A stretch of DNA of 64,000 bases from Eledone cirrhosa (Eukaryota). The notes below the pieces were generated by a model. It was not told the origin of the DNA, made no database searches, and saw only the letters and a program-made list of their open reading frames with translations. This document shows positions 41,086 through 58,091 of the stretch, piece by piece. The stretch covers positions 26,412,001-26,476,000 of the forward strand of contig OZ024744.1 in NCBI GenBank assembly GCA_964016885.1. Direction: 5' to 3'. Position numbers and translations under genes: made by a program. Every line of letters starts with the position of its first letter. Within the stretch, counting starts at the first letter, position 1.

Positions 41086-42360
41086 TGAAGAGAGAAGGAA
41101 CATTTAGATATAATTAGTAATAAAATGTATCATACCTAAACTGCTCCTAGATTCCTCGACTATGTAGTTTCGTGGCATAAACAAAAACAGTACATCATAA
41201 AGATATAGAGCCCTTGCGAGGTCTGCCGACTTATCAAGAGGATACCTCATTTTACTAGCTTCAAGAACGCGTCTACACGACGTGAGAAAGAATCCCAAAA
41301 GGCGGAGGGGGAGATAGTCACGCGATATAACGGTCGAGAAACAGAGTTAACCCTCTTATAACCCCGAAGAAAATACCACGGAGGCGGAGGGGGTATTTAT
41401 ATCGAAGCCGCAGAAGAGGTGGTAAAGGAGGCGAGAAGTATGAGTAATGGCAGCTTTCCAGCAGTCACCACACTTCAAAGATTACTCGACCAGAGGGAGT
41501 TATGAACAATATATTTAGAAACACACAGATACATACGGACACACACATATACATGAATGTATCCACATCCAACCGTGAGTTTGGTGTCTTCGGAGCAATT
41601 ATTCAGTGATTTTTTACATACTTGACCTCCTTTTCAACACAAGAGACATATAGAAACATATGTATATATTGACCCACAGTGGATTGACATCCATTATAAT
41701 AATATAGCATGGCAATTTACGAACAAAGATTACAGTCATATTAAAGGACAAAATTAAAGTTAAAATTAAAATTTAAATTAAAATTAAAATAAAACATTGG
41801 CAATTTACGAAGATAAAGCAAGAGGAAAGTTTGAAGTAGCCAGTGTATGCAAGAGTCACACGCGCTGGCATGCACGCGTGTCCTATTTATACAAGATTAT
41901 AGTGCGGCAGATTGTTACATGTAAAAAAAGCAGTCAAAGCAGGCAATCAAGAGCATCATGGGGGCTGTACTGGTAAAGCATTTTTCACACACACCTGTAC
42001 GATATAGAAGCCCGTGTGTAGAGAAACACCAAAAATATCAAAAATATTACAAATGAGAAGCAAAACAGCACCACTGTTCTCGCACACACCACCAATCTCA
42101 CAATCCAGGAAACGCAATTTATAGACTACATGTCCATCACACAATGGATTGTGAGATTCGAAACCGATTCGGTAAAGGTAACCATAGTGAGTACAGTGAA
42201 GTTTTTTAAATTTATTTTGAAACTTTTTCTTATTTGCTAAACCTTGATGTTCTGGCTCGTTAATTTATTAACATGCCATTGAACCACATTGGCATATGGT
42301 TGGACAATACATGTGTCCCTAGACGCTTTTTGCGTGTAGGGATATAAACTTTATTATTAT
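41086..42360. mobile_element. Chimera of three HHR-repeat families
   Basis: 41086-41570 is the inverse of the 50777 family, 41565-42158 matches the 59093-59655 family, 42153-42360 matches the 44682 family. Confidence 0.8.
41154..41241 (-). ncRNA. Hammerhead ribozyme, U3:A8 variant
   Basis: cctc-TTGATAA-gtcggca...tgccac-GAAA-ctacatag-TC-gagg. Confidence 0.75.
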
Positions 42361-43478
42361 ATATATATATATTTCCAATGTACTATATACATATATATAT
42401 GTCCAGTGTGCTATATATATATATATATATATATATATATATATATATATATATGGCCAGTGTGCTATATATATATATATGCATATGTCCAGTGTGCTAT
42501 ATATATATATATATATATATATATATGTGTGTGTGTGTGCCGTGTGATATATATATATGTATATATCTAGTGTGCTATATATATATATATATATATATAT
42601 ATATATATATATATCATAACTACAAATTAATTAACATATAAATATACATGAATAATCACAGCCTGATAATTTTTGCTTGCGTGTAACCACGCATAGCTAG
42701 TATAGGTAATATTTACCTTTAAGAGTGATTAATCTTCCTTGTATATATCCCATTAAAGAAATATATTTCACCAATTAATCAGATGGTAAGTCACGGAAAG
42801 TGGATATTATTGGATTGTCAACAAGGAAAGTGTAATAATGTCCAGGCATCCGTCCTTACAGAGTGAGTTCAAATCTTCATCTAGCCGTTACCACGGGTTG
42901 TGTCTACACAAGATAGCGTTTCGTTTCAGTGGCGTGAATAGGTATTCGACAACTAGAAATAGCAGTCAAATTCTCTTCAACAGAAATAGCTCTACAATTA
43001 AGGAGCCGTATATATATATATCTAAATCCAAAATTAAGATAAAATAAATTAAATGAATTTAATCGAAATGGAAATTATGGGTGTCATGTCATAATTCATG
43101 CGCCATATATCCTGGAAATTAAGCTCAAATATAAATCCGAGCATATTATAATAACTAGAAATTGATTAACATAAATATACATGAATAATCACAGGAGATA
43201 ATTTTTGCTCGCGTGTAACCACGCATAGCTAGTATAGGTAGTATTTACCTTTAAGAGTGATTAACCTTCCTTGTATATATCCCATTAAAGAAATATATTT
43301 CACCAATTAATCAGATGGTAAGTCCCGGAAAGTGGATATTATTGGATTGTCAACAAGGAAAGTGTAATAATGTCCAGCTATCCGTCCTTACAGAATGAGT
43401 TCAAATCTTCATCTAGCCGTTACCACGTGTTGTGTCTACACAAGATAGCGGTTTCGTTTTACACGACATTATTACACT

Positions 43479-43571
43479 TTCCTTGTTGACAATCCAATAA
43501 TATCCACTTTCCGTGACTTACCATCTGATTATTGGTGAAATATATTTCTTTAATGGGATATATACAAGGAA
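43479..43571 (+). ncRNA. Hammerhead ribozyme, U3:A8 variant (UUGACAA)
   Basis: 7-bp stem I ttccttg/caaggaa, stem II ccaat/attgg, GAAA 43537, stem III tatatttc/gggatata, AUA triplet. Confidence 0.75.
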
Positions 43572-44009
43572 GGTTAATCACTCTTAAAGGTAAATATTAC
43601 CTATACTAACTATGCATGGTTACACGCGAGCAAAATTGTCTCCTGTGATTATTCATGTATATTTATATGTTAATCAATTTCAAGTTATTATAATATGCTC
43701 GGATTTATATTTGAGCTTAATTTCCAGGATATATGGCGCATGAATTATGACATGACACCCATAATTTCGATTTAGATTAAATTCATTTAATTTATTTCAT
43801 CTTAATTTTGGATTTAAATATATATATACAATTCCTTAATTGTAGAGCTATTTCTGTTGAAGAGAATTTGACTGCTATTTCTAGTTGTTGAATACCTATT
43901 CACGCCACTGAAACGAAACCGCTAGCTTGTGTAGACACAACACGTGGTAACGGCTAGATGAAGATTTGAACTCGTAGTGTGAGGACGGATAGCTGGACAT
44001 TATTACACT

Positions 44010-44103
44010 TTCCTTGTTGACAATCCAATAATATCCACTTTCCGTGACTTACCATCTGATTAATTGGTGAAATATATTTCTTTAATGGGATATATACAAG
44101 GAA
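44010..44103 (+). ncRNA. Hammerhead ribozyme, U3:A8 variant (second tandem copy)
   Basis: Same fold as 43479-43571. Confidence 0.75.
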
Positions 44104-44842
44104 GGTTAATCACTCTTAAAGGTAAATACTACCTATACTAGTTATGCGTGGTTACACGCAAGCAAAAATTATCAGGCTCTGATTATTCATGTATATTTAT
44201 ATGCTAATCAATTTCTAGTTAATATAATATGCTCGGATTTATCTTTGAGCTTAATTTCCAGGATATATGGCGCATGCATTATGACATGACACCCATAATT
44301 TCGATTTAGATTAAATTCATTTAATTTATTTTATCTTAATTTTGGATTTATATATATATATATATATTTATATATATATATATATATATATATATATATG
44401 TATGTATATGTCCAGTGTGCTATATATATGTATATATATATATATATATATATATATATATATATATATATATAATTGTCCAGTGTGCTATATATATATA
44501 TATATATATATATATATATATATATATGTCAAGTCTGCTATATATTATATGTATATATATATATATATATATATATATATATATATATATATATATATAT
44601 ATATATATATATATATATATATAGATGTCCAGTGTGTTACATATATACATATATATGTCCAGTGTGCTATATATATATATTATAGTGGTAGTAAACTGAC
44701 CTCCCTGCCTCTGTTTCTATATTTACACACGGCACTGGACGGAATTGCTTTCATATCATTCATTCTCATCTCGGGAACAATTTTGAATAGCGCCAGTTCG
44801 TAATTTGAACTCCGGAATTTTATATTCTCCGAATGGACACAT

Positions 44843-55898: not shown

Positions 55899-56465
55899 TT
55901 AATCTGTTATTTTAATAAATATTTGCTCTACGGTTCTAATATATTTGATATATATTTTCCTTATCGAGCCCTCTTTGGATTTTAGTCTTCAATTTTATTA
56001 TTATTACTATATATATATATATTATATATATATATATATATATATATATATATATATATATATATATATATATATATATATATATATATATATATATATA
56101 TATATATATGTGTGTAGTGTGCTATATATGTATATGTCCGGTGCGCTATATATATATATATGCCCAGTGTGCCATATATATATATATATGTATATGTCCA
56201 GTGTGCTATATATATATATATATATATATATATATATATATGTCAAGTGTGCTATATATATATATATGTATATATTGAAGTTAATATGTCCAGGGATACT
56301 AGGTACCCCCAGAAATAGATAGGTTGTCTATGATTCAAGGTTGTTCAATGGTATTAATTTGATACACCAGAACTTTAATATTAAGATAAGCAGAACAAGT
56401 AAAATTCAATCAATTTTTTAAAATACATTAAAAAATATAATATAAATATTTACCTCTCCTAGTGG

Positions 56466-56544
56466 CCCTTACTGATCAGTTTCGCTTTGTAAAACCTCAT
56501 AAATCCGATGGATTTATGATGGAAAACCAAAGCTCATCAGAGAA
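56466..56544 (-). ncRNA. Type I hammerhead ribozyme
   Basis: Reverse complement of 57149-57227. Confidence 0.88.
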
Positions 56545-57148
56545 GCATTTTCTCTTCCTAGGGCTAAACGTCCCAGGAACGACAAAATATATAACCTCCT
56601 GCCAGCAAATAAAGGTCTGAAAGGTCGTAAAAGTGACCCGTATGTAAACTGGACCGAAGTAAAAGCGGTAAAATCAAAGACTTGCTGTCTACAATTACTA
56701 CTAAAAAAATAGCAGCTAAATAGAGCAACAGAATTGTTCTCAACGGACGGAGAAAGAGATTGAAGTTAATATGTCCAGGGATACTAGGTACCCCCAGAAA
56801 TACATAGGTTGTCTATGATTCAAGGTTGTACAATGGTATTAATTTGATACACCAGAACTTTAATATTAAGATAAACAGAACAAGTAAAATTCAATCAATT
56901 TTTTAAAATACATTAAAACATATAATATTTCAATCTCTTTCTCCGTCCGTTGAGAACAATTCTGTTGCTCTATTTAGCTGCTATTTTTTTAGTAGTAATT
57001 GTAGACAGCAAGTCTTTGATTTTCCCGCTTTTACTTCGGTCCAGTTTACATACGGGTCACTTTTACGACCTATCAGACCTTTAATTGCTTGCAGGAGGTT
57101 ATATATTTTGTCGTTCCTGGAACGTTTAGCCCTAGGAAGAGAAAATGC

Positions 57149-57227
57149 TTCTCTGATGAGCTTTGGTTTTCCATCATAAATCCATCGGATTTATGAGGTT
57201 TTACAAAGCGAAACTGATCAGTAAGGG
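57149..57227 (+). ncRNA. Type I hammerhead ribozyme
   Basis: ttct-CTGATGA-gctttg..(tcataaatcc/ggatttatga)..caaagc-GAAA-ctgatcag-TA-aggg. Confidence 0.88.
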
Positions 57228-57719
57228 CCACTAGGAGAGGTAAATATTTATATTATATTTTTTAATGTATTTTAAAAAATTGATTGAATTTTACTTGTTC
57301 TGCTTATCTTAATATATATATATATATATATATATATATATATATTATATATATATATGTGTGTGGCCAGTGTGCTATATATATATATATATATATATAT
57401 ATATATATATATATATATATAGATACGTCCAGTTTACTATTTATATATGTATCTATATATATATGTCCAGTGGTGCCATATATATATATATGTATATGTC
57501 CAGTGTGTTATATATATATGTATGTCTAATGTGCTATATATATATATATATGTGTGTGTCCAGTGTGCTATATATATATATATATATATATATATATATA
57601 TATATATATATATGTCCACTGTGCTATATATATATATATATATATATATATATATATATATGTCCAGTGTACTATATATATATATATATATATATATATA
57701 TATATATATATATATATAT

Positions 57720-58091
57720 ATGAATGTATATGTAGTGGATTTTACAATACACTGTATGCTTAATTAAAACCATTTCGAAGACCTTATGCTATTGTTTTAG
57801 AGTAGTGACAGTCTCACTTACTTTAAATTTTCAGCAAACAGGGGAGATGAAGCTGACAGAGCTATGTTTCGTACTGATTGGTACTTATCAAAGCCAAGTA
57901 CTCCACCTGTTTGCTGAAAATCATGAATGTTTGATTCTTATAGAATTTCTAGTAATAATCAGGAACTGATTATACAGAGCGGTTGCCGGTCAAGCAGAAA
58001 TTGAAAATTAGAATTGGCGCTCTGAAATAGCTATATATATATGAATGTATATATAGTGGATTTTGCAATACACTGTATGCTTAATTAAAAC
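57720..58091 (-). mobile_element. Non-coding 321-nt HHR unit with ~50-bp terminal redundancy
   Basis: 57720-57771 repeated at 58041-58092. Confidence 0.75.
57851..57895 (-). ncRNA. Hammerhead ribozyme, U3:A8 variant
   Basis: ggct-TTGATAA-gtac/caatca/gtac-GAAA-ca..tg-TC-agct. Confidence 0.8.

Follow-up and report, generated by a model that had tools for sequence, protein, structure and literature searches.

The genome of Eledone cirrhosa (assembly GCA_964016885.1, 3.0 Gb) contains several families of type I hammerhead motifs in which the consensus core pair C3:G8 is replaced by U3:A8, as found in a stretch of 64,000 nucleotides of contig OZ024744.1 (positions 26412001-26476000, here called the window). 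These motifs are real, non-random and fixed by lineage. The families (A, B, C, D with D2, and E) fall within a subtype, U3-A8, described for the hammerheads of Penelope-like elements (PLEs); D2 fails the core at position 13. The U3:A8 exchange itself has been published, and the new aspects are its abundance, its presence in at least two reverse transcriptase (RT) clades and the existence of matched sister families. The motifs of D, D2 and E are located at the ends of PLEs; those of A, B and C lie in tandem repeats in which no open reading frame (ORF) was found. Probably the exchange has been kept by selection on a few transposing source elements, and the motifs are predicted to cut RNA slowly, with the assistance of a second motif or a protein.

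Genome-wide searches with family-specific patterns, in which bases 3, 7 and 8 were left open and several other core bases were fixed, gave 27,036 matches for the five families. Base tallies refer to the first 100 places listed for each family, all on contig C1. Family A, with position 8 limited to A or G, had 1,363 matches (99 U:A and 1 C:G among those listed), family B 6,362 (99 U:A, 1 U:G), family C 548 (99 U:A, 1 U:G) and family D together with D2 17,362 (U3 in 100, A8 in 99). Family E had 1,401 matches; of the first 100, 99 showed A8, and U3 was present in 22 of 22 rows from 20 loci. The C3 and G8 of the strict consensus are thus replaced in nearly all listed places of families A-D, 99 of the first 100 having U3 and A8 together. 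The consensus bases U4, G5, A6, A9, G12, A13, A14, A15.1-U16.1 and H17, several of which were fixed by the pattern, are found in typical members of families A, B, C, D and E, and in those of A-D and one E subfamily three helices surround the core, with the ends in stem I. In the helices of family A 94.9% of the cells are paired, compared to 34-52% in slid controls.

The earlier proposal of a large hidden ribozyme population is borne out in number, although U3:A8 is already in print (PMC3088659, PMC4209133). With ca. 27,000 matches, the U3:A8 families are of the same order as the single canonical C3:G8 family counted, family J, which is represented in the window at 52242- and has 19,780 matches. 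Because of this comparable abundance, censuses based on the canonical core undercount hammerheads in such genomes. In the window itself the descriptor found at least 7 canonical C3:G8 hammerheads.

To recover folds irrespective of the 3:8 pair, as suggested in the first-pass annotation, a descriptor leaving both positions as any base was run on the window; it retrieved the four family A copies and those at 41153- and 57851-, and the remaining named sites were placed by family-specific patterns. A stricter version, which excluded G17, gave 155 distinct matches in 827,528 bases of genome stretches and none in 1,655,056 shuffled bases. The former number describes specificity, not abundance, as the loci were mostly retrieved on account of these families. 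A second shuffle control had no match in 1.71 Mb, and reversed patterns for families A-E gave 0-1 matches. UUGANAA and GAAA are frequent words in AT-rich DNA, and the damaged copies alone look weak, but chance matches to a short AT-rich motif are refuted by the empty shuffles of 1.66 Mb and 1.71 Mb, and the motif sits in PLE terminal repeats, the known place; we regard this explanation as extremely improbable. Among the 64 any-3:8 matches outside each locus's own target family, 10 were U:A, 47 C:G and 7 other, the first figure being an undercount of U:A families with weak stems. An Rfam scan of the window returned no hammerhead family among the 150 listed of 565 matches, which were dominated by microRNA models hitting TA repeats.

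The behaviour of positions 3 and 8 was most clearly seen in family A, which has a C3:G8 sister subfamily. The pattern for this sister gave 148 matches, the first 100 of which comprised 58 C:G, 35 U:A (20 from one cluster on contig C27), 2 U:G, 1 C:A and 4 other. In a tree of 92 rows, with positions 3, 7 and 8 masked, 65 U:A rows are located on one side of a branch with 100/100 support and the C3:G8 sister clade on the other. Two U:G and three C:U rows, including the window copy at 14921, are nested in the C:G clade. The tree indicates a single 3:8 switch, which may have run in either direction. Covariation, the second check proposed earlier, was evident in an alignment of 50 family A rows (2 of 52, with deletions, were left out): the pair was U-A in 29, C-G in 18, U-G in 1 and other in 2, counts inflated by kinship among the rows. 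One stem I pair also changes on both sides, and there is little or no variation at U4, G5, A6, A9, A14, A15.1 and U16.1. Of 20 descriptor clusters, 7 were dominated by U:A and 12 by C:G, one, of two rows, was tied between C:G and U:G, and a mismatch dominated in none. In agreement with the earlier claim, the double change is a trait of lineages and not of decaying copies.

The same data bear on the possibility that C3 and G8 were lost to AT-biased mutation in a small number of source elements, the dead motif then hitch-hiking with successful families. This neutral origin appears decidedly improbable. The window is AT-rich and packed with (TA)n runs, the independent events are few, damage has been fixed in D2 and in part of E, and U3:A8 doubles occasionally appear by decay in a canonical family. 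However, drift should fix mismatches as readily, yet none of the 20 clusters is dominated by them. Moreover, U3:A8 persists over D, D2 and E, whose proteins are about half different, while N7 and the loops vary and the stems turn over with compensation; such stem changes separate D from D2 and the E subfamilies from one another, and are also seen in a relative of family C.

The canonical family in question is J, where 80 of the 19,780 matches are U:A, mostly old and diverged, 52 of the 80 having N7 = G. Of 36 such rows retrieved, 29 form a long-branched, weakly supported group (58/99) from which the 24 other rows are all absent, a hint of an older U:A lineage; two U:A rows inside supported C:G clades look like double decay. 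A single young U3:A8 sub-lineage within family J was unsupported, the UUGAGAA rows being old and not forming one clade. The U3.G8 copy at 14921 was likewise rejected as a fixed intermediate subfamily, being a single mutant within the C:G clade, and so was CpG decay as the source of the change from G8 to A in UUGACAA, with C3 outside a CpG and N7 being A in most of the listed family A rows.

Families D, D2 and E are linked to PLE reading frames. At locus L217 an open frame of 775 amino acids encodes RT and GIY-YIG domains (RVT_1 E-value 1.2e-6 at 28.8 bits, just below the cut-off of 29.6; GIY-YIG E-value 3.9e-6), and the U3:A8 motif is present in both flanking repeats. The family D motif was found in 10 of 10 loci retrieved for the long D frame, a sample picked for long frames from 150 protein matches. 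At L217, L222 and L223 the motif lies on both strands around the ORF, in the terminal repeat and in an inverted 5' copy. The family E motif is located downstream of a broken PLE ORF at loci L214 and L213, the family D2 motif downstream of its own ORF, and the ORF pieces of both are homologous to the L217 frame. Protein identity is 45-52% between D and D2 over the C-terminal part and 52-62% between D and E over RT pieces; D and D2 are also similar in DNA around the motif. Across the motif, A, B, C and the D/E group have no DNA similarity to one another except for one weak D-E match. The first-pass annotation's count of five or more unrelated families has to be lowered accordingly: A, B, C and the D/E group are without DNA likeness, but D, D2 and E are related PLEs with ca. 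50% protein identity. From their CxxC linker motif these elements are probably of the Neptune type. Neptune-type PLEs are described with such a linker before the GIY-YIG domain (PMC8557442).

A further PLE, at locus L172 (4090-7709), is bounded by inverted repeats of 998 bp that are 99.3% identical; both contain a UUGAGAA core, and stem III is long and palindromic in each. It likewise has a hammerhead on both sides of its ORF, and its RT groups with two window elements that have the canonical core. On an RT tree of 7 rows, of which two were less than half complete, a single U3:A8 clade uniting the three U:A rows was rejected (p-AU 0.002). Short ends of the L172 family were seen in many loci, and also in the window at 5409 and 10099-10215.

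Families A, B and C consist of tandem units (ca. 531, ca. 591 and 320 bp, respectively) that lie between TA runs and are often accompanied by an inverted copy. Family A units measure 531-533 bp and family B forms arrays of 591-bp units, with one type I hammerhead per unit; one 320-bp array of family C held 11 motif matches. Within the segments bounded by TA runs, 60 loci of A, 30 of B and 20 of C showed no ORF match on the same strand, a small sample compared to thousands of copies. An apparent link of family A to the ORFs at L171 and L172 was rejected, since TA runs intervene and repeats of its own flank the L172 ORF. The animal non-LTR (long terminal repeat) retrozymes (bioRxiv 10.64898/2026.07.22.740005), which are thought to derive from PLE repeats, are likewise built of non-coding tandem units, a few hundred bases long and each with a single type I hammerhead. 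A, B and C differ from these in their U3:A8 core, in being known here from DNA alone, and in also showing the inverted arrangement typical of PLE insertions. By their layout they may fit the retrozyme description or may be multiplied terminal repeats of unsampled parents. Separately, G000:C27:15764359-16206613 holds a series of at least 20 family A copies with UUGAGAA, all on the same strand and spaced 4-60 kb apart, which suggests a large tandemly duplicated region. At L213:1290-1800 a diverged relative of family C has kept U3:A8, its 4-bp stem II being wholly different and an A.A mismatch occupying 10.1/11.1.

The closest known system is that of the Cercyon PLEs of Schistosoma mansoni, for which U3-A8, ca. 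1,300 hits and a dimer model were reported (Cervera & de la Peña 2014, PMC4209133). Both share the type I fold, the U3-A8 covariation, the location in terminal repeats, a short palindromic stem III, and a predominance of single truncated copies and opposite-strand pairs. In contrast to Cercyon, the present genome has 27,036 pattern matches, its U3:A8 motifs are spread over at least two RT clades as well as tandem repeats, and stem III of family A measures 9 bp, resembling the monomer-type motifs of fungal and protist PLEs. Natural U3-A8 covariation together with a U10.1.U11.1 start of stem II, as seen here, was also described, and called rare, by Perreault 2011 (PMC3088659); C13 is unmentioned in the core-variant section of that paper. 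Further context is given in PMC6765202, PMC6155905 and PMC7151607. Among the publications listed for octopus and hammerhead ribozymes, none concerned this population by its title.

If the motifs cut, a tandem or read-through transcript would bring two of them together. The palindromic stem III of B, C, D and E would pair between the two motifs, and the 9-bp stem III of family A could form within one molecule. U3 would pair with A8, replacing C3-G8, and a cut after position 17 would trim the element RNA to unit length, possibly aided by the element's protein, for which a protein-assisted PLE hammerhead (PMC11167929) offers a parallel. Copies would decay neutrally once inserted.

Several points weigh against selection for RNA cutting. 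Family D2 has 4,523 matches, and C13 (A13C) is present in 99 of the 100 listed first, so that the consensus core is not required for spread; its stem II is compensated and its stem I is weak, with three to four A-U pairs. In a common family E subfamily stem I is mismatched. The minimum-energy fold of a family A copy pairs U3-U4-G5 elsewhere and leaves the core not open, and damaged D and E copies do not adopt a hammerhead shape. The independent 3:8 switches are few (one in A, two or more on the RT tree and possibly one in J), and a PLE parent of A, B or C was not found among the loci sampled. Within family D, 97 of the 17,362 matches lack U3, and A8 is retained in all 97. The first-pass annotation had named independent variation of positions 3 and 8 as refuting; between lineages they change jointly, but within families independently, as neutral decay predicts, and therefore any selection acted on the source elements only. 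Published data add that minimal PLE hammerheads cleave weakly even as dimers (PMC4209133), that a complete double-mutant scan of one type III hammerhead found rescue by G3:C8 only (PMC9901934), and that catalytic mutants of one PLE hammerhead were without effect on insertion in vitro (PMC11167929). The earlier claim of selection for activity is hence supported by the joint switching of lineages and weakened by D2, the decay within families, the restricted rescue and the ineffective mutants.

Some of these points also speak for a fold kept for a job other than cutting, such as RT binding or RNA-RNA pairing via the palindrome, with the 3:8 pair serving shape and U3:A8 cleavage being negligible. 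D2 thrives with C13, U3:A8 gave no rescue in the scan (PMC9901934), the activity of PLE motifs is low (PMC4209133), and in one PLE, besides the mutants without effect on insertion, reads ending at the cut site were absent (PMC11167929). On the other hand, the seven core bases named above are invariant or nearly so in the 50 family A rows, and U3-A8 constructs are said to be active in vitro (PMC3088659, citing another study). Position 17 is never G in family-typical folds, a weak argument as the descriptor excluded G17. We consider a purely non-cutting role unlikely, and return to selection on slowly cutting motifs as the preferred interpretation.

Under this interpretation, D2 would represent a lineage that has lost its cutting or reduced it further. 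Its C13 could allow U3-U4-G5 to pair with C13-A14-A15.1 in an inactive fold. A literature search for an A13C hammerhead found no publication. A bolder proposal, which we regard as doubtful, is that U3:A8 is a co-dominant working core in this genome and that PLE lineages have repeatedly exchanged C3:G8 for U3:A8 and vice versa, thereby tuning the speed of cleavage; D2 would then be either an active triple variant absent from print or proof of spread without RNA cutting. For the role of the hammerhead in PLEs, this genome supplies natural controls in matched pairs: family A (U3:A8) and its C3:G8 sister, and D (A13) and D2 (C13).

Of the named copies in the window, all have UUGANAA in the type I layout, as the first-pass annotation had stated, but only 6 of 13 are intact; the other 7, counting both arms of the palindrome at 49103, have damage to a stem, to the palindrome or at position 13. 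The family A insertion at 42616..44349, for which an ORF was not found, consists of two inverted and two direct units between (TA)n runs. The direct copy at 43476..43574 (+) carries UUGACAA with U3 at 43486, a stem I of 10 bp, U10.1.U11.1 and a stem III of 9 bp, with a predicted cut after A43564. The second direct copy, in a 531 bp unit, is at 44007..44106 (+), and the inverted copies are at 43264..43363 (-) and, in a 532 bp unit, at 42734..42829 (-). All four are intact and complete, as annotated before, but stem I comprises 8-10 bp counting G.U rather than 7, and the U10.1.U11.1 mismatch shared by all, next to a 9-bp stem III, had gone unmentioned. The C3:G8 sister subfamily is represented at 14921..15003 (+) by the U3.G8 single mutant inside the C:G clade.

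Family B has UUGAUAA at 50783..50870 (+; U3 at 50787), with a palindromic stem III and stem I reduced to 3 bp. In the next unit, 593 bp on, at 51376..51464 (+), A13 is changed to U (GUAA); this position, 51447, is A in most contigs aligned from three sequencing runs. The third copy, 41153..41242 (-), is one of the intact ones, with an undamaged core, a stem I of 5 bp and a palindrome off by one base. The family C fold at 57851..57895 (-; UUGAUAA, U3 at 57891) is intact, with stems I and II of 4 bp and a near-palindromic stem III. Family D motifs are located at 24911..24946 (-; UUGAAAA, U3 at 24943), at the 3' end of a PLE and with 2 of 4 stem II pairs broken, and at 50625..50661 (-; U3 at 50658), where stem II is intact, the ACCGGU palindrome is lost and stem I has 2 bp. 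The D2 palindrome has its left arm at 49112..49148 (-; U3 at 49145) and its right arm at 49223..49259 (+; U3 at 49226), each with U3:A8, GCAA, hence C13, and three A-U pairs in stem I. The family E motif at 24192..24229 (+; UUGAUAA, U3 at 24196) shows U10.1.U11.1 and a stem I decayed to 1 bp. It belongs to a 5'-truncated PLE at 23667..24443 (+), which contains the last ORF codons at 23668-23754 and is 74% identical to locus L214 over 834 columns of DNA and 76% over 29 amino acids.

Canonical C3:G8 type I hammerheads of further families were observed in the window at 4979+, 20646+, 34881+, 44843+, 45326+, 52242-, 56466-, 57149+ and 63817-, stem II of the last opening with a C.A mismatch. The window holds several PLE remnants; two of the 10 candidate PLE frames scanned in it gave weak GIY-YIG matches, at 32539 and 60267. 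The PLE at 16430-20740 has its 5' repeat fused directly to the hammerhead core of an inverted copy from the C3:G8 sister of family A (16071-16420); a template switch between the two RNAs is a possible cause. Between 40800 and 57720, many of the (TA)n arrays are interrupted by a short recurring unit of ca. 10 bases, with a period of 22-32 including the TA runs. A broken element of the long interspersed nuclear element type, with RVT_1 and zf-RVT matches, lies at 1473-4042 and is unrelated to the hammerheads.

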